This document shows, piece by piece, positions 5,648-24,489 of a DNA stretch of 24,507 nucleotides; position 1 is the first letter of the stretch; the number at the start of each line of letters is the position of its first letter. Both the position numbers and the translations under genes were made by a program. Under the pieces are notes generated by a model. The model was not told the origin of the DNA, did no database searches, and saw nothing but the letters and a program-made list of their open reading frames with translations. The DNA is from Candidatus Thorarchaeota archaeon (GTDB lineage Archaea > Asgardarchaeota > Thorarchaeia > Thorarchaeales > Thorarchaeaceae). The stretch lies in NCBI GenBank assembly GCA_003345555.1, contig PRDJ01000052.1, positions 1-24,507 of the forward strand, read 5' to 3'.

Positions 5648-6778
5648 TTGGCTAGAGGAGAATCATATAGTTCCCAGAAACTAGGCGGGACAGACGCCAC
5701 AACCAAGAGAAGGAAACTGGATCACATCGAAATATGTCTACAAGAAGATGTGCAAAGCAAAGCCTCCGCCATGTTTGACGATATTCGATTGGTTCACAAT
5801 GCGTTGCCCGAAATCGACAAAGACGCAATTGACCTCACTACAAGTCTTCTGGGCCTGAAGGCTGGTGCGCCGATAGTAATAGCTGCGATGACCGGAGGTC
5901 ATCCCGATACGTATGAGGTGAACCGCAGGCTTGCAGAAGCCGCCGAGGAGCTGAAGCTCCCAATAGGTGTCGGAAGTCAAAGGGCTGCAATTGAAGATAC
6001 TTCGCTAGCATACACGTTTGAAGTGGTAAGAGAAGCGGCGCCCTCGGTCCCAGTAATCGCCAATATCGGTTCTACACACGCCGAACACGCTCCGGAAGCT
6101 GTTCAGATGATTGACGCGGATATCCTTGCTGTTCATCTTAACCCCTTGCAAGAGGCTGTACAACCGGAAGGAGAGTGTGATTCATCCGGCGTACTCGACA
6201 AGATTGCATCAGTGCTAGATTTGGTTGATGTTCCGGTCATAGTGAAAGAAACAGGAGCTGGCATCTCTTCAACGGTGGCCAAGCAATTGGAGGCCATCGG
6301 AGTTGACGGAGTGGACGTGGGAGGACTTGGAGGAACGAGCTGGTCCGCTGTTGAGTATTATCGCGCCCTAAGGGAAAAGAATCATGAAAGAGCCTTCTTG
6401 GGTCATGAATACTGGGATTGGGGAATCCCGACGGCTCTGAGCTTGGCTATGGTGGTTTCATCGACTGACCTCAGTGTTATCGCCACAGGTGGCATTAGGA
6501 CGGGTCTAGACGTCGCGAAGGCTCTGAGCTTGGGCGCTGATGCTGCCGGAGTTGCCTTTCCGCTACTGAAACCCGCCGTGACAGGAAAGACCAGCGACGT
6601 CGTGAACGAGCTGACAAAGATAATCGAGAGCTTGAGGGTCGCCATGTACTTGACCGGATGTCAATACGTGGATGATATGCTTGGTCGTCCCGTAATCATA
6701 CAAGGAAGGTTACGAGAGAATCTCGAGACCCTCGGCATCGACTACTGGAGATACGAGAGAAAGAAAGCGAGAGAGTAG
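5648..6778 (+). CDS. fni: Type 2 isopentenyl-diphosphate delta-isomerase (FMN-dependent)
   Basis: RKLDHI, AMTGG, GSQRAA, HLNPLQE, KETGAG, GGTSW, WGIPT and GGIRTGLD. TTG start preceded by GGTGA. Confidence 0.96.
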   Translation: MARGESYSSQKLGGTDATTKRRKLDHIEICLQEDVQSKASAMFDDIRLVHNALPEIDKDAIDLTTSLLGLKAGAPIVIAAMTGGHPDTYEVNRRLAEAAEELKLPIGVGSQRAAIEDTSLAYTFEVVREAAPSVPVIANIGSTHAEHAPEAVQMIDADILAVHLNPLQEAVQPEGECDSSGVLDKIASVLDLVDVPVIVKETGAGISSTVAKQLEAIGVDGVDVGGLGGTSWSAVEYYRALREKNHERAFLGHEYWDWGIPTALSLAMVVSSTDLSVIATGGIRTGLDVAKALSLGADAAGVAFPLLKPAVTGKTSDVVNELTKIIESLRVAMYLTGCQYVDDMLGRPVIIQGRLRENLETLGIDYWRYERKKARE

Positions 6779-6785
6779 CCACTCT

Positions 6786-8228
6786 TCACTCTGTAGATGT
6801 CGGTTGTGAATCTTCGAGAGCGCCGACTCGTTGGAGGTATCGAGACCGCGTTCTTATTCCGTTCAGCATTTGGACCGCTTCCTCTATCGTGTCCCCGACG
6901 GGGATGCCATTCAACTCGAAACCTCGTATGATTATATCGTACTTCTCGAGGTCCGGCACGTAAGAGACAACCGTTCTGTTGTGGCGCTTGACGACCGCCG
7001 CAACCTTGGCCCCGATTTGCAGAGAAATGCCGGGCGCGTATGGCAAGAGCAATAAGAGGGCCGCGTCAATGTAGTCGATTGCCAGCATCTTGTCTAGGAC
7101 ATGTTCAAAATCAGCATCGGTGGCGCTTCCGGTCAGGTCACATGGGTTCCTGAACGAGGCGATATCTTGGTAAGCAGGAGTCATGACTGCTCGCATTGCC
7201 TCTTGATCTTCGCTTGAAAACGGGGGAATTTCGAGTCCATAGAGGGCAGCTTCGTCCGTGGCTATCACTCCGTGGCCACCACTCACTGTCAGAGCTCCTA
7301 CACGCGGGCCCTTCATAGGGATTGGCTCGAAGGAGAAAACCTTTGAACAGGCCATGAGATGGTCCTCGTCACGAGCCTCTATGACTCCGAACTGTCTGAA
7401 GGCTGCTGAAGCAACAACCGAACTGCCCCCTAGGGCAGACGTATGACTCATTGTGGCTCTGTGTCCTGCTTCTGATACGCCTCCCTTGTAGACAATTACT
7501 GGTTTCTTTGTAGCGTATCTGGCGCAGGCCTCCACAAATTCCCTTCCTTCGTTCTCTCCGAAGCCTTCTAGGTATGCGACTATGACCTTCACATTCTTTT
7601 CATGCTCGAAGTGGTGAACGAAGTCTGTTACTTTGGTTTGAGCGGCATTACCAATTGAAACCGCAGCAGCGATCCCCACATCGCGTTTTGAGAATTCTTC
7701 CAAGCGTTCAACGAGCCAGCCTCCACTCTGCGATATGATTGCCACGCTTCCCCTTCTGGGTCTTGCAACACGTTCCGAGGGAAGAAAGAACGTGTCAAGG
7801 GTATCAGGGACAAAGACGCCAATGCAGTTCGGACCCACGAGGGAAATCTCAAACCTGTTCGCGATATCCACAATCTCCTGCTGCAGCTTGATTCCCTCTT
7901 TTGTCTGGGTTTCACTGAAGCCGCCTGAAACGACCACAACTGCTTCTATACCTTTGTTACCGCATTCCTCGAGTACTGAGGGCACAGATATTGCAGGGAT
8001 GGATATCACGGCAAGATCTATGTCATCAGGAGCTTTGGTGATCGAGGGGTAGACTTGCACACCCTCCACATCGCCGCCCTTGGGGTTGATAGGATAGGTC
8101 TTCAGTGCATTCTCAAATGCTAGCTTGCGGAAGATGACGTTTCCAGGAGAAAAGACATTCGAGGTCGAAACACCAATGACTGCCGCGACTCGAGGGTTCA
8201 GCAACTTATGAAGGCCGGTCATGACCAA
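6786..8228 (-). CDS. acdA: ADP-forming acetate/acyl-CoA ligase, alpha subunit (CoA-binding domain + ligase domain)
   Basis: YPINPKGG, DLAVISIP, SGGFSE, GPNCIG, SQSGG, SIGN, YLEG, phospho-His motif ATMSHT and NPCDLTG. No ATP-grasp beta domain is fused. Confidence 0.88.
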   Translation of the reverse strand: MVMTGLHKLLNPRVAAVIGVSTSNVFSPGNVIFRKLAFENALKTYPINPKGGDVEGVQVYPSITKAPDDIDLAVISIPAISVPSVLEECGNKGIEAVVVVSGGFSETQTKEGIKLQQEIVDIANRFEISLVGPNCIGVFVPDTLDTFFLPSERVARPRRGSVAIISQSGGWLVERLEEFSKRDVGIAAAVSIGNAAQTKVTDFVHHFEHEKNVKVIVAYLEGFGENEGREFVEACARYATKKPVIVYKGGVSEAGHRATMSHTSALGGSSVVASAAFRQFGVIEARDEDHLMACSKVFSFEPIPMKGPRVGALTVSGGHGVIATDEAALYGLEIPPFSSEDQEAMRAVMTPAYQDIASFRNPCDLTGSATDADFEHVLDKMLAIDYIDAALLLLLPYAPGISLQIGAKVAAVVKRHNRTVVSYVPDLEKYDIIIRGFELNGIPVGDTIEEAVQMLNGIRTRSRYLQRVGALEDSQPTSTE

Positions 8229-8304: not shown

Positions 8305-9375
8305 TCACAGCTTCATCTGGGAGAGCACTTCTCTGAGTCTAGGCTCAGCAAGTATCGCATGGTGCAGTTTCGAAAGAAGCTTTGTGATTTCGGCGTAGAT
8401 GACTTGCCGTGCAGGTTCTGTTGCGTGTGTCGCTTCTTGGAGTGCTTCCTCACATCGCTGGTTGATTCTCTTGATAAGTCGTTTCTCTAGCTCAGGTCCT
8501 CCCCATCCAAATCCGTCGAAAGCAGTCTGTGCTTCAGAAATCTTGTCTTCGACGTTTGGCATCTGTCCTCTCAGCAACTCATCTAGCCCTGAGAAGTACT
8601 TGGCCACCGCACGTTCGAGCCTTTCTGTCTCGCTTGCTTCAAGAGTTGTCTCATGGGCTCGTTTGCTGTATAGGTCTTGGAGCAACCTTGCGCCAGGTGC
8701 CTCAGTGAGGAGGGTTTTGATAATCTTGACCATGTATTCAGCAGGCAGCTTGATGGCTTCCTCCATCAATGGCGAATCTGACCGATATCTGTGGAGCTCC
8801 CGGTTAGCCTCAAGCCAAAAGACTGGGAGTAGGACATGGCAGCGTTTAGAGTACTGGTCGATGATCTGTTGGGCTTGGCTAACGAGTCCCCATTGGTCGT
8901 CTTCAATATCGACTCGCTTGTAGACCTCCTTAGCTTTCGCAACGGCCGTCTCATATAGTGGGAGTGTTGGCTGCGTTTCCACTAGGGGAATCGCGGCTTG
9001 GGGATTCGTGGGCATGGCTTGCTGACGGACCGTGGTCTCGTCGAGGAAAGACAGTATTTCCTGCGTCGGATGACGACCCGCTTCAGCCGCCTTGGCTTTC
9101 TCAGACAGTTTGGGAAGGAGGCTCTCCAGCTGGGCGAGCCTTTTAGCTATGAGACCCATCATGTCTGCAGTACTCTTGGGAATGCCCTCCATCGACATCG
9201 TGTCTTCCATCCATTTCCTTGCGCGCAGAAGTCCCTGAGTCAGAGAGTCAACCCTGTCAGGGTCAACGCTTCCCTCGACCTGAGAGGAGAGTATGAAATG
9301 GATGAGTGTAGAATTGAGAGTCTCTATCAAGAGGAGTCTGTCGACAAGTTCGTCCATACGCAGAGGTTCGGTCAA
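8305..9375 (-). CDS. Hypothetical alpha-helical protein (N-terminal helical bundle, P/Q/T-rich linker, C-terminal helical domain)
   Basis: 356-aa ORF with TTG start and GGGGGTG RBS, 16 nt downstream of the tubulin-like gene. No recognisable catalytic motif. Confidence 0.8.
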   Translation of the reverse strand: MTEPLRMDELVDRLLLIETLNSTLIHFILSSQVEGSVDPDRVDSLTQGLLRARKWMEDTMSMEGIPKSTADMMGLIAKRLAQLESLLPKLSEKAKAAEAGRHPTQEILSFLDETTVRQQAMPTNPQAAIPLVETQPTLPLYETAVAKAKEVYKRVDIEDDQWGLVSQAQQIIDQYSKRCHVLLPVFWLEANRELHRYRSDSPLMEEAIKLPAEYMVKIIKTLLTEAPGARLLQDLYSKRAHETTLEASETERLERAVAKYFSGLDELLRGQMPNVEDKISEAQTAFDGFGWGGPELEKRLIKRINQRCEEALQEATHATEPARQVIYAEITKLLSKLHHAILAEPRLREVLSQMKL

Positions 9376-9391
9376 TGTGACACCCCCAATC

Positions 9392-10777
9392 TTACTCTAG
9401 TGTGCCGCCTTCCATGTAGTAGCTGAACAGCTCACGGAAGTCATTGATAGCAGTCACAAGTTCCTTTCTTGTCGTTCCCTTTGATCTCATGAACCAGCTC
9501 TGCTTCAAGGCAGAGGGTCCGCTGTGCAGATTCACAAGTTGGGTTGCTTCGTTAATGAGCTGAACCAGCTCTGGTATCTTGGGTAATCCCAGCAGAAGCA
9601 AGAGCTTCACGATAGGCTCTGGACCCTGGTGCTGAACATAGCATGGTGTAATTGCGGCACCAGGAGCTATGTACTTGTCGAGAGCCTCCTTGATGTGCAT
9701 CCCATACTCTGCCTTCGAAATATGCCTCGGCCCATCGAAGACGTAGTAGACACTCTCGGCGTTCGGGGTGTCTCCGACGTCAGCGTAAGAGCACTGAGTT
9801 ACTGCGTAATCAATCATTGTTCGCAGCTGTCTTGGCATGCTGCCTGCATCGGGAATCAGTCCAATATCATTGTAGAGAGCGGGCACAACGACTGGATCCA
9901 GCTTCCTTGCATAATCGGCGAGATCTGTTGTTGGAAAGACGTCCTTTTCAGGCTCATAGACTCCCGGTGATAGCATTGCTTCAATCACATCAAGCGCGAG
10001 AGGGTTGACGAGTTCCACAAATGCTTGCTCTGTTCGAGTCTCAAGCTCACTGCTTCCGCCATCGACAGTACTCGGAACCATCTGCTCTATTGACTGAACG
10101 TTGGCGACATCGACGTCAAGTTCCTTTGCCAAGTAGTCGACACTGTCTCCCCTTCTCCATTGAAGGATTCTCTTGAGCATGGTTCTATTGCTGAGGAGTA
10201 TTGTAAGATCTGCACCACGTTCCTGTAGCTGAGCTCGAAGAAGTTTCGAGACAGCCCATATCGAGTTGAGAGCTTCACTGGACTGTCCCTCAAATGGCAG
10301 CACACCTATGACGTATACGAAGATTCGTCTTCCCTCTTCTTCCTGAAACTTCTGCTTGAGAAGCTCGATGATGGCCGGCGTACCACCACAACCAGTACCA
10401 CCGCCCAGACTGGTGAATATGCAAAATCCGGAGACTCCTTCGAAGCCCAAGTTTGTGAGCTGGTCGAAGATGATGTCCTTCGATTCCATGACAGCATTAT
10501 AACCGTCCATGAATCGACCACCGACACCGATTTCGCTTTCTCCATAGAGGAGCGTGTGCTCCTTTGGTATTCCGTATTTCTGACGGACCTTTGTGAGATC
10601 TGAGCGGTCCGTATTCAAGAGCAGATATCCACGAACTCGAGAAGGTAACTTCTTGTCTTCGCTAGCTTTCAGGTACGATCCAACTATATTAGAGCCACAT
10701 TCACCAATCCCAATTGCGAACATCTCCGCAGCTTTACCCAATTCCTCGTCTGCGCCTTTTCCCTTGGTCTTCTGCAT
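9392..10777 (-). CDS. Divergent tubulin/FtsZ-superfamily GTPase (CetZ/FtsZ-like, not canonical FtsZ)
   Basis: T1 IGIGECGSNI, T2 NTD, T3 GVGG, T4 signature LGGGTGCGGTP (10405-10382), T5 VLPFEGQ, T6 LSN, H7 LVN and T7 TTDLADY. AGGAG RBS before ATG. Confidence 0.92.
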   Translation of the reverse strand: MQKTKGKGADEELGKAAEMFAIGIGECGSNIVGSYLKASEDKKLPSRVRGYLLLNTDRSDLTKVRQKYGIPKEHTLLYGESEIGVGGRFMDGYNAVMESKDIIFDQLTNLGFEGVSGFCIFTSLGGGTGCGGTPAIIELLKQKFQEEEGRRIFVYVIGVLPFEGQSSEALNSIWAVSKLLRAQLQERGADLTILLSNRTMLKRILQWRRGDSVDYLAKELDVDVANVQSIEQMVPSTVDGGSSELETRTEQAFVELVNPLALDVIEAMLSPGVYEPEKDVFPTTDLADYARKLDPVVVPALYNDIGLIPDAGSMPRQLRTMIDYAVTQCSYADVGDTPNAESVYYVFDGPRHISKAEYGMHIKEALDKYIAPGAAITPCYVQHQGPEPIVKLLLLLGLPKIPELVQLINEATQLVNLHSGPSALKQSWFMRSKGTTRKELVTAINDFRELFSYYMEGGTLE

Positions 10778-10795: not shown

Positions 10796-13486
10796 CTATC
10801 CTCTCTTTTCCAACATTGTTGCCACGAGCTCTTTTACAGCCCAAGACAAGTAAGAACTGATATCATCCCTCGAGTAAGTCTCCTTGATCTTCTTGATGGC
10901 CTCCTCAACGAACTTCTGCCGCTGGTCAGAGCTAGCACCAGGGCTGAAACCAGCCATGTACATCTTCAGGCTCTTGTGCCATTCATCCATCTTCTCCGCC
11001 TTCTCAATCCAACCCTTGCGGAGTTCCTTGATCTGGTTGAAAAGCTTCAGAGCGTCGTCAAGCATACGAGCCGACGCCAAGTCTGACTCCATCTTCTTCA
11101 TCTTATCAAGTGGGTAGATGAGGTTACTGAAATCTTTCGGATGTTTTTCATACACTCGTTCGATGGTCGAATAGTACTTGCTGCGTTCTTTGAGAGTTTT
11201 CTCGTACTCCTGACGGTCCTTGTTCGAAATGCTCTTGATCATTGCTATCATTTGTTCCTGAATATTGGCGAGTGTCAGGCAGACTTCGAGTGACTCATAG
11301 ACATGCTTTGGTTGCGATGCGAGCTGGTCCGGAACCTTTTCGATGAGGGCCTTGAGATTGCTGACCGAATCTCCCATGCCCTGCTCTTCGAAGGTTGCGA
11401 TTGCGTTGTTGATTTGAACGTACGCTTCAGAAGCTCGGCTCTTAATCTTCTGCAGAACAACCGGAGAAGTCGTTAGCTTCTGTAATCTGTCAAAGGATTC
11501 GGCCGCTCCCTCAAGTTCCTGAGGGGGTTCGGATCTTAGGTCCGCCAAGATCTGAAGTTCCTTGTCGAGATCCACACCTATGCTTCTGGCCTTACTGAAT
11601 GACGTTTCAAGATCTGTAACCTTGACCATAAGCAGCTCGATGACCTTTGAGGAGATTTTTTGCTCGTAAACCTCAATCATCTTGCGTGCGACCGCAGGTA
11701 AGCTGAAGACGGTCTCTGCAACAACACCAATGTTGTTGAGTTCCGCGATTCCCTCTTGTACCTCTGGAGGAATCTCAACACCCGATCCCATCAGCTTTGC
11801 AGCTGCAAGTCTGATTTTGACACCAAGTCTGTACCTGAGGTTCTCAAGCGCCTCCTTTGCCATAACCAGAATTGTGTCCTTGATGTTCCTCATCTCAGAC
11901 CTGATTTCTGCGAATTCCTTGAGTTTCTGCAGTTTCTGCTTGCCCTCCTCCAGCCTCTCAGTGATTGGCACGAATATCTCCGCGTAGACTGGCTTTATTG
12001 TCTGGAGGTCCTCGATGATTGCTTCTATCTCCTGATTGCAGGCGTCACGGAACGTGGCCACTCCACTGTCCACGGCTTGCTTAAGTTGACCCAAAGCCTG
12101 AAGCAGGTATAACGTGCTTCCGCTTTGCAGTTCTTCGACTTTGGGTGCCTTCTTGCTAAGCTGGGCATAGTCCAGAACACGGTCTGCAGAAGTTGCCAGT
12201 TCATTGAACCGTGCTAGGTACGACCGTATCTTCTCGGTGATGAACTTGCGCTGTTCATCCTCCATCGTCCTAGCTTTCAGATAGATCCTTATCATTGCGT
12301 CAATATCTGCCTTGTCCAATTGAGACCTTGAGTCGGAAAGGAATTGCTTCACGGCTGGCAAGTCTTTGATGCCCGCATCTGCAGGAACCTCAGCTGCCTT
12401 GTCTATTTGTTGTAGAAGATCCTCAGTCCTGTCCTTCAGTGCGATTCTAACCTGGCCTGTCCACTCCGCCATTCTTCCCAGAGACGATAGCAGACTCGAA
12501 ATATCCAGATTCTCAATTCCTGCGACAGGTGCTTGTGGGATTATGTCTGCGGTAGTAGGGATGCCGCCTTCTACAATCTTGGTCGTCACTTCATGCTTTA
12601 TGTTGATTATCCTGTCCCTAAGCATGTTGGCCATTTGAGTCCTGACAGACTGAAGTTGATTATCGAGGCTCATCAAAGTTGTCAGATTAGTTGCCTTGCC
12701 GGCATCTCTTGCGAGGACACGAAGCTTCTGGCTGAAGTCCATGGGCAGCTCGAGACCGAGCTTTGATGCAGTCTCAACAGAAACAGAGAGAGAATCGATG
12801 TCTGAAACAAGGTGGACTGAAAGCATGCGACTAACTTCGTCCTTTCTGCTGTCGAGATAAGTCCGCTCTGCTTTCAGTCTCTCCAAGAGAAGAATCAGAT
12901 TCATGACTGAGAGGCTGGAAATATCGTCGGTGGATGTAGTCGTAGCAACCTCGCCTGTGTCGATACTGACATGCCTCTGGTAAGTCTCTACAGTGCGCTT
13001 GTTTTCGTCGAGTAAGGTCCTGGTCTCTCTAGAGATTTCTTGATGCAAAGCTACAGAGCGCTTGGAGAAGGTCTCGGCAAAGCCATATAGTTTCTGGAAG
13101 TCTTCGGGATTACCAGCTGCAATCGATGGAAAACTCAAGGTGGCAATCGCCTTGGCCTCTTCTGGCTTGATTGCTTGCAGTTTGGGTAGGATCGCTATGA
13201 CATCCCGCTGCTCCTTCTTGAGAAGGTCAGCGAAATCCCTGACAGTCCTCATGAAGTAATCTTGGAGTTCGCTAGCGACTTTCTCAACTTGTGCCTTCAC
13301 TTTACCCTTCTTCAGCATTCCAGCTGTTGCGGCTTCATTCTCGAGCTTGCTAAAGTTGGCAAAGATGTCATAGAGGTGACGCGTTTGCCTTTCTGTCTGC
13401 TCCTCCAGTGAAGGGTTGACTGAAATGAGCATGGCTTTCATTTCTGCGAGCTTGTCGAGCTGTAGACGCCATTGGTGACTATCCAA
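10796..13486 (-). CDS. 896-aa all-alpha helical-repeat / coiled-coil rod protein
   Basis: Long uninterrupted ORF rich in L/E/K/A with heptad-like spacing. No TM segment or NTPase motif. TTG start with GGAGG at 13498-13494. Ends 18 nt before the tubulin-like gene. Confidence 0.85.
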   Translation of the reverse strand: MDSHQWRLQLDKLAEMKAMLISVNPSLEEQTERQTRHLYDIFANFSKLENEAATAGMLKKGKVKAQVEKVASELQDYFMRTVRDFADLLKKEQRDVIAILPKLQAIKPEEAKAIATLSFPSIAAGNPEDFQKLYGFAETFSKRSVALHQEISRETRTLLDENKRTVETYQRHVSIDTGEVATTTSTDDISSLSVMNLILLLERLKAERTYLDSRKDEVSRMLSVHLVSDIDSLSVSVETASKLGLELPMDFSQKLRVLARDAGKATNLTTLMSLDNQLQSVRTQMANMLRDRIINIKHEVTTKIVEGGIPTTADIIPQAPVAGIENLDISSLLSSLGRMAEWTGQVRIALKDRTEDLLQQIDKAAEVPADAGIKDLPAVKQFLSDSRSQLDKADIDAMIRIYLKARTMEDEQRKFITEKIRSYLARFNELATSADRVLDYAQLSKKAPKVEELQSGSTLYLLQALGQLKQAVDSGVATFRDACNQEIEAIIEDLQTIKPVYAEIFVPITERLEEGKQKLQKLKEFAEIRSEMRNIKDTILVMAKEALENLRYRLGVKIRLAAAKLMGSGVEIPPEVQEGIAELNNIGVVAETVFSLPAVARKMIEVYEQKISSKVIELLMVKVTDLETSFSKARSIGVDLDKELQILADLRSEPPQELEGAAESFDRLQKLTTSPVVLQKIKSRASEAYVQINNAIATFEEQGMGDSVSNLKALIEKVPDQLASQPKHVYESLEVCLTLANIQEQMIAMIKSISNKDRQEYEKTLKERSKYYSTIERVYEKHPKDFSNLIYPLDKMKKMESDLASARMLDDALKLFNQIKELRKGWIEKAEKMDEWHKSLKMYMAGFSPGASSDQRQKFVEEAIKKIKETYSRDDISSYLSWAVKELVATMLEKRG

Positions 13487-13529
13487 ATGCCTGCCTCCGT
13501 GTAGTACGGCTGAAAGTCTGGACTCTGTG

Positions 13530-13538
13530 TTTATTAAA
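13530..13538 (-). promoter_or_regulatory. Putative TATA box (TTTAATAAA) of the rod/tubulin-like operon
   Basis: AT-only tract in a GC-richer intergenic region, 44 nt upstream of the TTG start. The spacing fits a short leader that contains the GGAGG RBS. Confidence 0.5.
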
Positions 13539-13729
13539 CCAATGTGGGATTAAACCCCGAGTATTCCAATCTCACTGCCTCATATGTCCGTAATCTCGGA
13601 AAATCAGAACGGCAGGCAAGGGAAGCTTGGCCTCTGCGTTGAGTGAATGGTCTTACTACATTGGGAGCTAAGAGCGACTAGTGATTTGGGTCGAGAAGAT
13701 TGCAGCTTTCATGTAAGTGTTTAGCTCGA

Positions 13730-16961: not shown

Positions 16962-17939
16962 CTACTTCTTCTTTGAAGGAGCGGAAGGTGCAGCTGCTGC
17001 AGGCACGACTCTCGTTCCGGTCTCGCCGTGCAGTGCCTTGGTGATGTTGGGAGGGTCGGTGATTATCGCCAGCTGGCCGCCATTCCTTATGAAGTCGACA
17101 CATGCTTCGATTTTGGGAAGCATGCTGCCTGCGGCGAAGTGACCTTCCTTTATGTATCGTTGGGCCTCACTGACATCCATCTTGTCAATTGCCTTCTGGT
17201 TTGGTTTGCCGAAATTGAGGTAGACCTTTTCCACTGCTGTTGAGATGATCAGCGCGTCAGCATTGAGTCCGCTGGCAAGCAATGCAGAAGCTCTGTCTTT
17301 ATCAATGACTGCCGCTACGCCTTCGAGCTCGCCGTTCGGCTTCCTGATGACCGGGATGCCGCCTCCGCCAACTGCGTAAACAATAATGCCTTGGGCTATC
17401 AGATTCTTAATGACTGGCAGTTCGATGATTTCTTTGGGAATCGGAGACGGGACAACCCTGCGCCATCCTCTTCCAGCATCTTCCTTGATTGCCCATCCTT
17501 CAGTCTGAGCTCGGGACTTCGCTTCTTGTTCTTCTAGGAAAGAGCCAATTGGCTTGTCGGGGTTCTTGAATGCTGGGTCATCGGTATCGACACGAACAAG
17601 CGTGACAACAGTTGAAACTGGCTTCGTCACTCTGCGCTTCTGGAACTCATTGTAAAGTGCTCTCTGAATCATGTAACCGATTGCGCCTTCCGTGTCAGCA
17701 CCACAGTAGTCGAGGGGAACCTCGTGGAGTTCCTTCCTAGAGAGTTCTGACCTTCTTAGGATGAACCCGACCTGGGGACCATTCCCTGAGGTTATCACAA
17801 CATCCCAACCCTCTAGAATCATGTCGGCGATGTGTTTGCACGTTTCTGCGCAAGCTGCATACTGGTCTGGCACAGTCTGATGCTGCTTGTCTTTTATCAA
17901 AGAGTTGCCACCTATGGCAACTACTGCCCTACGGCCCAT
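16962..17939 (-). CDS. arcC: Carbamate kinase
   Basis: VVAIGGNSL, SGNGPQVG, FKNPDKPIG, EDAGRGWRRVVPSP, GGGGIPV, AVIDKD and GSMLPK. Confidence 0.96.
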   Translation of the reverse strand: MGRRAVVAIGGNSLIKDKQHQTVPDQYAACAETCKHIADMILEGWDVVITSGNGPQVGFILRRSELSRKELHEVPLDYCGADTEGAIGYMIQRALYNEFQKRRVTKPVSTVVTLVRVDTDDPAFKNPDKPIGSFLEEQEAKSRAQTEGWAIKEDAGRGWRRVVPSPIPKEIIELPVIKNLIAQGIIVYAVGGGGIPVIRKPNGELEGVAAVIDKDRASALLASGLNADALIISTAVEKVYLNFGKPNQKAIDKMDVSEAQRYIKEGHFAAGSMLPKIEACVDFIRNGGQLAIITDPPNITKALHGETGTRVVPAAAAPSAPSKKK

Positions 17940-18004
17940 CGTTCTCATCTCCCATAAATGGAGAACCAAGCGGTCACTCGTAGGCTAATTAAAGGAAACG
18001 GTAA

Positions 18005-20182
<2,178 letters not shown>

Positions 20183-22397: not shown

Positions 22398-22775
22398 TCA
22401 GGGTCGCTTCTCCGCTTTCTTCTCGCCCTGAGTCTTGCTCTCGTAATCTTCAATCGCCTTTTGAAGAGCCTCGGCCGCAAGATTGCTGCAGTGCATTTTG
22501 TGAGGAGGCAGGCCATCAAGCGCGTCAGCTACCATCTTCCTAGTGATGGTTTTTGCTTCTTCAATTGTCATGCCCATTGCCATTTGCGTGGTCATTGATG
22601 AGGTGGCTATGGCTGCAACGCATCCGAAGGTCTCGACCTTGATGTCGACAATCTTGTCATCCTTGACTTTTATGAAGAGCCTGAGCATGTCGCCACATAC
22701 TGGATTACCCACTGTTCCCACACCATCAGCATCATCGATCCGACCCATGTTCTGCGGGTTCTTGAATTCCCGCAT
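22398..22775 (-). CDS. iscU: IscU/NifU-type Fe-S cluster scaffold (start probably upstream of 22775)
   Basis: NPQNMG, GNPVCGD, FGC..AIA.SS, LDGLPPHKMHCS.LA. All three Cys, the Asp and the His are retained. Confidence 0.95.
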   Translation of the reverse strand: MREFKNPQNMGRIDDADGVGTVGNPVCGDMLRLFIKVKDDKIVDIKVETFGCVAAIATSSMTTQMAMGMTIEEAKTITRKMVADALDGLPPHKMHCSNLAAEALQKAIEDYESKTQGEKKAEKRP

Positions 22776-22859
22776 GACCTTGTCAGTGTACGTTTCTATT
22801 CCTCCAGTAGCTCACACCAAAGCGACTCGGCAATTCCTAGACAGTGACTTCACAAATCG

Positions 22860-24086
22860 CTACCCTAAACTCTGGTCGTCGTCCGAGGAGCTTTCCTGTT
22901 CTTCATGTTTGGCCTCGGACTTGGCCATGAAGTATTCACCCCTCTTGAGCGGGCTGAATTGACGTAAACGGTTAACTATCGGTACTAGCGCCTCGACAAA
23001 CCCATCAATCTGCTCCTTTGTGTTGAAGCGGGATAATGAGACTCTCACTGACCCGTGAGCGATTTCAGGTCTCAAACCGATTGCTTTCAGCACGTGACTC
23101 CCCTGAAGAGTCTTCGAAGAGCATGCGGAGCCCGTTGAGATTGCGTACCCATCCATATCGAGTTCGACGAGCATAGATTCTCCCTCGATTTGTTCCACAA
23201 CCATGCTGAACAGATTTGGTAGCCTCTTCACCGGATGTCCTGTGACTCTGTAATCTTCGAGAGTGGTACTCATCTTCTGCTCTACGTAATGCCTCAACGA
23301 AAGCAGATTGTCCGACTCGTCTTTTCCCCATATCTTCACGGCCTCTGCGAAGCCAACAGCTCCGGGGATGTTCTGGACTCCCGGTCTGAGTCTTCGCTCC
23401 TCGTCCCCGCCCTCCATGATCCTCTCAACTCTCGTGCCCTTCCTCACGAAAAGCGCACCAATTCCTTTGGGACCATGAATCACATGAGCGTCCATTGTCA
23501 TCAGATTGATTGGAACTGCCTGTATGTCGACTGGTATTTTCAGGTAGCTCTGAGTAGCGTCGGTATGAAAGATCACACCACGGGCTGAGGTCATACGTGC
23601 TATTTCTTCGATTGGCTGAACTGTTCCTATCTCACCGTTAGCGTGTTGAATTGATACAAGAATCGTGTCCTTTCTAATCTTCTTCTTCAGCTGACCGACA
23701 TCTACAAGGCCGTTTTCATCCACGTCCAGGATGTCGAGTTCAAACCCGTCCTTCTCAAGAGCCTTACAGGCCTGCAGCACTGACATGACTTCAATGGAGC
23801 TTGTGATTATGTGCTTCCCATGGTCCTTGTTGGCCAGAGCGGCGCCCTGAATAGCCAAGTTGTTCGACTCAGTTTGCCCTGACGTGAAGACAATTGTCAA
23901 TGGATCTGCATTGATGGATTCAGCAATAACCTTCCTCGCATTCTCGAGTCCTTTCATGGCTGCAACGTCACGGGAATGGCCAAGTTCCATCCCTGCGGTT
24001 CCGTAACTTTCCCTGAAGTAGGGTAACATCGCTTCTATGACTCGCTCATCCACTCTTGTGGAGCTGGCATTGTCGAGAAAAGCCAA
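22860..24086 (-). CDS. iscS: IscS/NifS-like cysteine desulfurase homolog with a degenerate PLP site (probable pseudo-desulfurase)
   Basis: LDNASST, FTSG.TESNNLA, FHTDATQ, HGPKGIGAL, STGSACSS and SVRVSLSR. TTG start at 24086 one base after the HTH stop, with GGAGG RBS; the ORF-track start at 24155 overlaps the HTH gene. Confidence 0.9.
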   Translation of the reverse strand: MAFLDNASSTRVDERVIEAMLPYFRESYGTAGMELGHSRDVAAMKGLENARKVIAESINADPLTIVFTSGQTESNNLAIQGAALANKDHGKHIITSSIEVMSVLQACKALEKDGFELDILDVDENGLVDVGQLKKKIRKDTILVSIQHANGEIGTVQPIEEIARMTSARGVIFHTDATQSYLKIPVDIQAVPINLMTMDAHVIHGPKGIGALFVRKGTRVERIMEGGDEERRLRPGVQNIPGAVGFAEAVKIWGKDESDNLLSLRHYVEQKMSTTLEDYRVTGHPVKRLPNLFSMVVEQIEGESMLVELDMDGYAISTGSACSSKTLQGSHVLKAIGLRPEIAHGSVRVSLSRFNTKEQIDGFVEALVPIVNRLRQFSPLKRGEYFMAKSEAKHEEQESSSDDDQSLG

Positions 24087-24087
24087 G

Positions 24088-24489
24088 TTATCTTCCTCCG
24101 TCTTTGCATGCTCGACACTCCTCCTCCACTTGTTTGCACTGTCCTCGGTGGACATCGCACATGATTCCTGCGTCTCTCATGGCTTTGATGAGTCGATTTA
24201 CTTCCTTCGTCATGAGTTGGTATACGTATTTGTCCGGCTGTCTAGCCTGCCACGCCTTTATCATGGAGTCGACTGATTTCTCAATTTCTGGGATGAAAGA
24301 ACTCGGTATCTCGATAACATCGCCCCGAGATCTCTTGGACTTGGCTAGCTTGTACTGGGTGACCGCCGGTTCAGTAACTCCAAGAATGCCTGCTATATCC
24401 TTCTGGGGTATGCCCTTCTTTATCATCAAGCGCGCCATCTCTCTTCGAAGAGATGGGAGAACATACCATACCTCCAACTCCTGGGGCAT
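24088..24489 (-). CDS. Archaeal HTH transcriptional regulator (COG2522-like) with a C-terminal Cys/His cluster
   Basis: PQELEVWYVLPSLRREMA, HTH IPQKDIAGILGVTEPAVTQY and C-terminal CDVH...C......CRAC. The frame is open to the window edge, so the start could be slightly further upstream. Confidence 0.85.
   Translation of the reverse strand: MPQELEVWYVLPSLRREMARLMIKKGIPQKDIAGILGVTEPAVTQYKLAKSKRSRGDVIEIPSSFIPEIEKSVDSMIKAWQARQPDKYVYQLMTKEVNRLIKAMRDAGIMCDVHRGQCKQVEEECRACKDGGR

Follow-up and report, generated by a model that had tools for sequence, protein, structure and literature searches.

The window analysed here, a stretch of 24,507 nucleotides from a Candidatus Thorarchaeota genome (contig PRDJ01000052.1), encodes a tubulin-superfamily protein whose nucleotide-binding loops read as a mixture of FtsZ and tubulin motifs and which carries a long insertion between helices H6 and H7. 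The locus raises the question of where in the superfamily this protein belongs, whether its branch is new, and what the gene and its surroundings indicate about its function. The reading frame (10777-9392, minus strand; 461 residues) has an SD-like GGAG 9 nt upstream and lies between two further genes of the same orientation:

9392-10777, minus strand: Asg.Tub tubulin/FtsZ-superfamily GTPase, 461 residues (PF00091 match, AlphaFold2 model, VIA structural comparison, 52% identity to OLS26264.1)
10796-13486, minus strand: upstream rod, 896 residues, all-helical, tandem helical bundles, C-terminal domain conserved; separated from the GTPase by 18 nt
8305-9375, minus strand: downstream partner, 356 residues, no family assigned, with the sequence pattern of a helical protein; 16-nt gap containing an SD-like GGGGGTG

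The 461-residue protein matches the Pfam Tubulin family (PF00091) with 71.6 bits (cut-off 33, E=1.3e-19). Its AlphaFold2 model, built from 31 homologues (pTM 0.84), was matched to tubulin/FtsZ folds by Foldseek (E ~1e-17) and by VIA (Z 32-35), the top structural match being OdinTubulin (VIA Z 35.4, rmsd 3.0, 366 residues aligned); the CetZ structure 3zid scored Z 34.2 (rmsd 3.0, 322 residues). Both the fold and the signature of the superfamily are present, the latter in a Cys variant (GGGTGCG). The protein is not an FtsZ: it reaches 32 bits with the FtsZ equivalog TIGR00065, for which the cut-off is 295, its T7 loop reads TTDLAD as opposed to NxDxxD, and it falls outside the FtsZ clade. The same genome carries two ordinary FtsZ genes besides. 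As originally predicted, an FtsZ-type linker and C-terminal peptide are absent, and the C-terminus consists of three predicted helices instead.

The gene is intact and belongs to Asg.Tub, a clade that already has a name, and so is no discovery in itself. Asg.Tub was named as a CetZ-like group of Asgardarchaeota by Santana-Molina, del Saz-Navarro & Devos in 2023 (PMC9871819), in the supplement of which it is defined by four sequences (OLS26264.1, KXH77455.1, OLS30664.1 and PWI48967.1). Our protein is 52% identical to OLS26264.1 (homologue P0114 in our set) over 97% of its length (E=2.9e-146), and the Thorarchaeia members in that study share the GECG, GGGTGCGG and TTDLADY motifs as well as the insertion. 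PMC9871819 puts both Asg.Tub and Halo.Tub in the interval from CetZ to the tubulins, judged nearer to CetZ, presents a C-terminal alignment of four members whose C-terminal HMM matched no other family, and mentions coiled-coil genes of no known identity beside Asg.Tub; in our data, too, Asg.Tub is encoded in Asgardarchaeota beside helical or coiled-coil genes of no known family. Its text, as far as consulted, has no description of the insertion, of the constant order of three genes, of the spread over 126 of 400 genomes, of the two-gene duplicate or of the tubulin-like tail, all taken up below. Asg.Tub is probably also what bioRxiv 10.64898/2026.02.15.705738 takes for its outgroup under the name "CetZ-related Asgard archaeal clade". 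Our search of the literature on Asg.Tub found no experimental paper.

Homologues that are 50-97% identical occur in Thor-, Hermod-, Sif/Borr-, Baldr- and Asgardarchaeia and in Hodarchaeales (50-87% across classes), and the loci closest to that of the window are from Thorarchaeota. In a full profile search Asg.Tub formed a tight, isolated set, the next full-length relative following at E=1e-40 and others at 1e-16 or weaker. It was monophyletic in our trees (support 100/99) and separate from FtsZ, from canonical CetZ and from tubulin. The original prediction of a distinct clade is borne out in this respect, no nesting inside FtsZ or canonical CetZ having been seen, but not as a new clade, given the published name and the 52% identity to OLS26264.1. 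A quick tree left the deep relationships unresolved. In a careful site-heterogeneous tree, the CetZ group (100/98) and the tubulin clade (100/100) both exclude Asg.Tub, which is sister to Halo.Tub-like proteins (90/78) within a larger group that includes the tubulins (100/96). This deep placement with Halo.Tub and tubulins is only suggestive, since long branches meet there. Profile comparisons rank Halo.Tub-like proteins first (E=5.4e-30), followed by CetZ (1e-22) and Asgard tubulins (2.8e-10).

The putative nucleotide-site elements of the protein are as follows:

10685-10705, minus strand: T1 loop, core of GIGECGSNI (G25-I31), with an invariant E26
10598-10615, minus strand: T2 loop, N-T-D-x-x-D (N55-D60), of the CetZ-type NTxxxDL pattern
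10385-10405, minus strand: T4 signature GGGTGCG, with Cys in 130 of 133 members
10265-10297, minus strand: T5/H5, with P161, F162, Q165, E168 and N171 invariant and E163/G164 variable
10004-10021, minus strand: start of H7, with invariant F253 and N258; the aromatic residue stands five residues before the Asn, where four is usual
9914-9931, minus strand: T7 loop, T-T-D-L-A-D, with D285 and D288 invariant and mostly Thr at the Asn position

All of the motifs that had been read from the sequence are in place, namely GECGSNI (residues 25-31), NTD (55-57), GGGTGCG (125-131), PFEG (161-164), N197, N258 and TDLADY (284-289). Conservation was computed over 133 Asg.Tub family members, in every one of which E26, N30, N55, T56, D60, G84, G86, G87, P161, F162, Q165, E168, N171, N197, F253, N258, P282, D285 and D288 are retained. 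The mixture of motifs stands as far as the letters go, but its interpretation as an FtsZ/tubulin mosaic does not: T1 G-x-G-(Q/E)-(C/A)-G, T2 NTxxxDL, T5 LP, the H7 Asn and a T7 without Asn are common across ~110 CetZ-like proteins (a set labelled by motif, not by annotation), and the apparent mosaic is therefore mostly the usual CetZ-like signature. Asg.Tub itself has the CetZ-type nucleotide-site motifs (NTxxxDL, GVG, T7 without Asn, and the H7 Asn). The PFEG segment, taken earlier for an FtsZ-like T5, is coincidental, because E163 and G164 differ freely from member to member, whereas all 133 share Q165, E168 and N171; the E168-x-x-N171 (ExxN) pattern is in register with the E-P-Y-N of tubulin. 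As for the supposedly FtsZ-like DxAD of T7, the acidic pair D285/D288 is indeed invariant, but the Asn of FtsZ and tubulin is replaced by Thr in 126 of the 133 members and retained in three; in OdinTubulin this Asn is a cation binder (PMC8956254). The invariant GTP-site residues, together with D285 and D288, fit the predicted activity as a GTPase. At the start of H7, the aromatic residue of OdinTubulin (F222) is four residues ahead of the Asn (N226; PMC8956254). The guanine pocket of Asg.Tub may be slightly remodelled exactly where the insertion ends, because F253 stands five, not four, residues before N258.

The insertion lies between the T6 Asn and the H7 Asn:

10049-10156, minus strand: H6-H7 insertion, approximately residues 208-243, seen as a gap in the profile alignment with Halo.Tub-like proteins

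The predicted extent of the insertion (10165-10043) agrees closely with this gap, and the distance from N197 to N258 is 61 residues, as claimed. The corresponding spacing is 21-22 residues in Asgard tubulins, 20 in the two FtsZs of the genome and most often 18 in CetZ-like proteins. All 133 Asg.Tub members possess the insertion (spacing 50-69, compared to 18-22 in CetZ, FtsZ and tubulin), whose length is ~36-43 residues in alignments with shorter-spaced relatives. By sequence the insertion is a marker of the Asg.Tub clade, since it occurs in all of the members and the close outside relative P0127 has no large insertion (spacing 29). Its acidic character holds for the present protein, in which residues 209-250 have a net charge of -7 and the most acidic 42-residue window starts at residue 210, but is lineage-dependent in the clade at large (-7 to +1 over 23 members dereplicated at 80%). 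Among the same 23 members the first half (~207-227) keeps the pattern W-x-x-G-x-x-x-D-x-L-x-x-x-L-G-x-D-I-x-D, and the second half is a hypervariable linker, free in both length and sequence. The AlphaFold2 model shows two short helices here (pLDDT ~46-55) and is unreliable in this region. In established structures, the H6-H7 loop leads into the helix that binds guanine, at the end of the subunit where GTP is exposed (the "nucleotide sensor motif" of PMC8956254), and the argument that the insertion adjoins the guanine site is upheld. The insertion may, as originally proposed, serve to bind a partner or to set filament geometry.

The original prediction dealt with a single gene and overlooked its two operon partners, which are inherited along with it, as well as the likeness of its C-terminal helices to those of tubulin. 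Asg.Tub is probably the GTPase of an ancient three-gene module of Asgard archaea, handed down mostly by vertical descent, in the order 896-residue rod gene, 18 nt, GTPase, 16 nt, 356-residue gene, with SD-like sequences in both gaps. This order is kept in nearly all of the 81 loci where the contig allows (two gaps are longer) and recurs in 14 loci of more distantly related families (a few of them from already sampled genomes); in these ~95 loci the gaps are mostly shorter than 50 nt. The trio is maintained across Thor-, Hermod-, Sif/Borr- and Baldrarchaeia and Hodarchaeales, and the neighbours outside it change between lineages. Of 400 Asgard genomes, 126 have the GTPase, 125 the rod and 123 the 356-residue partner, all three being spread over the same families, and 121 have both the GTPase and the 356-residue partner; these counts are descriptive, as related genomes are not independent. 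Each of the three genes occurs in 32 of the 90 high-quality genomes. The GTPase, mostly in single copy, is present in 75 of 85 genomes of its own Thorarchaeia family, in 21 of 22 of the family containing Hodarchaeales, and in 15 of 19, 5 of 5 and 4 of 4 genomes of others. It is absent from many Asgard families (e.g., 0 of 135 and 0 of 31), and hence is not a universal Asgard function.

The rod model is all-helical (mean pLDDT 86.5, pTM 0.40). Its relatives range from 873 to 1311 residues, partly through extra units of ~122-125 residues, and the C-terminal 150 residues are the most consistently detected part. Extended rods at L089:112-3183 (1023 residues), L090:3750-7685 (1311 residues) and L081:4437-7952 (1171 residues) fit a length-tunable spacer. 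Searches of Pfam, NCBIfam and PDB sequences, and by Foldseek, VIA-wide comparison and the atlas, gave only generic helical matches for the rod and the 356-residue protein; the dynein-tail and PRC1 Foldseek rows were discarded as non-significant (E >= 0.09). There is no detectable homology between the two partners, and the genes upstream of the outside relatives P0157 and P0252 do not match the rod. A predicted transmembrane helix is found in none of the three operon proteins of the window (maximal 19-residue hydropathy 1.2-1.55), and a scan for bacterial promoters and terminators gave a chance-level result. A three-chain prediction (GTPase 17-457, rod C-terminal domain and 356-residue protein) scored 0.65, compared to 0.58 with the downstream chain replaced and 0.00 with the GTPase replaced; the design is confounded, and the scores count neither for nor against a complex.

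Eight genomes of the Hodarchaeales family carry a second GTPase copy, always together with a duplicate of the rod gene. In five second copies that were compared in detail, the 356-residue partner is absent and the insertion is the shortest (spacing 50). These rod-GTPase pairs are located at L092:7420-12180 (minus strand), L096:3560-8331 (plus strand), L097, L098 and L102, and show changes at the otherwise conserved L417, G420, A374 and D190. A 739-residue open reading frame that follows a Hodarchaeales second copy was ruled out as a partner, being convergent and on the opposite strand.

Several features of the wider surroundings were recorded. In 43 Thorarchaeia loci a divergent gene for a WD40 propeller of ~640 residues (with a weak TPR match at ~326-352) lies between a TPR gene and the rod, e.g., at L012:3168-5111 (minus strand) and L019:3123-5084 (minus strand); it is missing at 13487-13729 of the window, and tblastn found no orthologue in the 93%-complete genome to which the window belongs. 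Genes resembling NDP-forming acyl-CoA synthetase (6786-8228, minus strand) and FMN-dependent IPP isomerase (5648-6778, plus strand) come after the operon here and in the majority of loci from Thorarchaeia and Borr, which is probably plain synteny. By inspection of their sequences, a carbamate kinase (16962-17969, minus strand), an NAD-dependent, bacterial-type DNA ligase (18050-20182, plus strand) and an IscU/IscS-like pair (22398-24155, minus strand) provide an ordinary housekeeping context. The closest outside relative, P0127 (L104:8001-10149, with P0273), has SMC/ScpA genes in its vicinity, and the gene after it codes for a 262-residue protein with an N-terminal hydrophobic helix and a faint likeness to the C-terminus of the 356-residue partner (prob 19). 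The deep CetZ-like relatives P0252 and P0137 (L119:954-5748, L121:150-9238) lie amid large unannotated genes, for proteins of 1085 residues (with a 4-bp gap) and of 680, 222 and 648 residues and a beta-propeller, suggesting further uncharacterised modules.

The GTPase model ends in helices 402-417, 423-433 and 437-454, the last two of which cover the following feature:

9416-9496, minus strand: tubulin-like H11'-H12 tail, W428-F429...K433-G434...L440, A443, D446, L450, Y454 (profile match and model helices)

In VIA structural alignments tubulins extend to residue 457-461 and CetZ proteins stop at 416-425. Within the tail W428, F429, K433 and G434 are invariant in Asg.Tub, and L440, A443, D446 and L450 nearly so. 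Residues 428-454 matched the H11'-H12 tail of 11 Asgard tubulins with an HH probability of 81 (score 34.9, 35 columns), compared to scores of at most 21 for the controls (reversed, 100 column-shuffled, unrelated helical, CetZ and Halo.Tub profiles); the region is an amphipathic helix and was chosen after inspection. A tubulin-tail HMM run over a 135-sequence superfamily set ranked Asg.Tub directly after tubulin-like proteins, in a single register and at only 2-14 bits, and in the reverse search a tubulin ranked first outside the Asg.Tub family. The tail profile by itself retrieved no tubulin in an hmmsearch of the PDB. We conclude that residues 428-454 weakly but specifically resemble the tubulin H11'-H12 tail, as a lead and not as proof; the similarity bears on the timing of the MAP- and motor-binding surface of tubulin.

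The reading that we favour, and to which we give a somewhat better than even chance, is that of a GTP-driven head-to-tail filament with in-trans hydrolysis through D285/D288, organised by the rod and a small regulator, that serves cell shape or internal organisation apart from FtsZ-based division. Asg.Tub would bind GTP and assemble head-to-tail. As FtsZ, CetZ and tubulin do, each subunit would contribute its D285 and D288 to the catalytic site of its neighbour, and the filaments could thereby turn over. The loss of the Asn from T7, together with the Cys in T4 and the Glu in T1, would probably change the rate of hydrolysis and not abolish it. The conserved half of the insertion, which would sit at the GTP-exposed end beside the guanine pocket, probably forms an extra helix-turn packed on its own or the next subunit, and the variable half may be a disordered surface loop with little specific function. 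The tubulin-like tail would contribute an outer helical surface; the rod, varying in length by whole repeats, is most likely a spacer, cross-linker or tether, and the 356-residue protein most likely a regulator or anchor. From analogy and from the presence of the FtsZs, we infer a role that is probably in shape or internal organisation rather than septation, since both FtsZs of a second, FtsZ-based system are present.

The filament reading is weakened by the replacement of the T7 Asn, the cation binder of OdinTubulin, by Thr in 126 of 133 members, and by the 36-43-residue insertion at the plus-end face, which could hinder head-to-tail contact. The same features would suit a GTPase that forms no filament, its insertion capping the plus-end face and the protein acting as a monomer, a short oligomer or a gamma-tubulin-like subunit fixed by the rod and the small partner. 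The insertion is universal in the clade and lies at the GTP-exposed face, and a large all-helical partner is always adjacent and co-duplicated; however, the invariance of D285/D288 in 133 members is best explained by in-trans catalysis, and the rod has no specific fold match to gamma-tubulin complex proteins, so that we regard such a template as unlikely. An accessory role in membrane remodelling or trafficking, comparable to that of Halo.Tub in the Halo_adaptin ESCRT system (a link reported in PMC10936438), is quite improbable in our view. Halo.Tub-like proteins are the best profile match (5.4e-30, against 1e-22 for CetZ and 2.8e-10 for tubulin) and the sister group (90/78), and Thorarchaeia have the divergent WD40-propeller gene in 43 loci, but that gene is absent from the genome of the window and from loci outside Thorarchaeia, the conserved neighbours include no ESCRT or membrane gene, and the operon proteins lack transmembrane segments.

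The chromosomal position of the operon amid housekeeping genes, the variable neighbours beyond the trio, and two net acidic partners with no DNA-binding domain make a DNA segregation system of the TubZRC type very unlikely, even though a three-gene operon around a CetZ/TubZ-like GTPase, and the location of P0127 a few genes from an SMC/ScpA pair, would be in keeping with it. That Asg.Tub is a third FtsZ-like protein of cell division is scarcely credible: its near-universal retention in lineages that have it agrees with such a function, but the TIGR00065 score (32 against 295 bits), the lack of an FtsZ C-terminal linker or peptide, the position outside FtsZ in the trees and the two true FtsZs of the genome all argue against it.

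The favoured filament reading has a bolder extension, which we hold to be doubtful: Asg.Tub may be a surviving side branch of the stem leading from CetZ-like proteins to tubulin, with the tubulin tail already present, and form a dedicated Asgard cytoskeleton with its own rod cross-linker and regulator, in which the insertion sets an unseen filament geometry. If Asg.Tub does polymerise, it would exceed every other filament of the tubulin family except FtsZ, by a wide margin, in its spread among the archaeal relatives of eukaryotes. The module probably encodes an unexplored filament system in these close relatives, and its two dedicated partners make the system directly reconstitutable from three genes.

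Among known systems, the rod resembles EzrA/spectrin-like rods in its tandem helical-bundle architecture, by analogy only. It has no significant sequence or fold match to EzrA or spectrin and no transmembrane anchor; the EzrA atlas row gives TM 0.23/0.44, and comparisons with spectrin/EzrA and others yielded matches to helical bundles of a generic kind only (Z no higher than 11.4, atlas TM <0.5). CetZ1/CetZ2 (Haloferax 4b46 and 4b45, Methanosaeta 3zid) are the best PDB sequence matches to Asg.Tub and have in common with it NTxxxDL, GVG, the Asn-less T7 and LP at T5. They differ in forming a separate clade, in a spacing of 18, and in lacking the tubulin-type H11'-H12 tail, no H12-like helix being aligned (ends ~416-425). 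Halo.Tub, the haloarchaeal CetZ-like group of PMC9871819, shares the T1 Glu and is the best profile match (E=5.4e-30 over 328 columns), as well as the sister of Asg.Tub in our careful tree and in the Fig. 6 tree of that paper (support 62). Unlike Asg.Tub, it has a spacing of 15-33 and no large insertion, no W-x5-G tubulin-type tail and a different gene context.

True tubulins are reported in ~1% of surveyed Asgard genomes (PMC13394414), and we found them in 8 of 400, all in families without Asg.Tub. The four families with true tubulins and the nine with Asg.Tub do not overlap in this sample, in small numbers of related genomes. Tubulin_C (PF03953) has no match in the genome of the window or in any Asg.Tub-bearing family. 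Asg.Tub is 15-20% identical to true tubulins and differs from them in a T2 of NTD instead of DLE and a T3 without AxNNWA. The structural alignment with OdinTubulin covers the C-terminal helices, and the ExxN pattern in H5 is common to Asg.Tub and to OdinTubulin, AtubA/B and eukaryotic tubulins.
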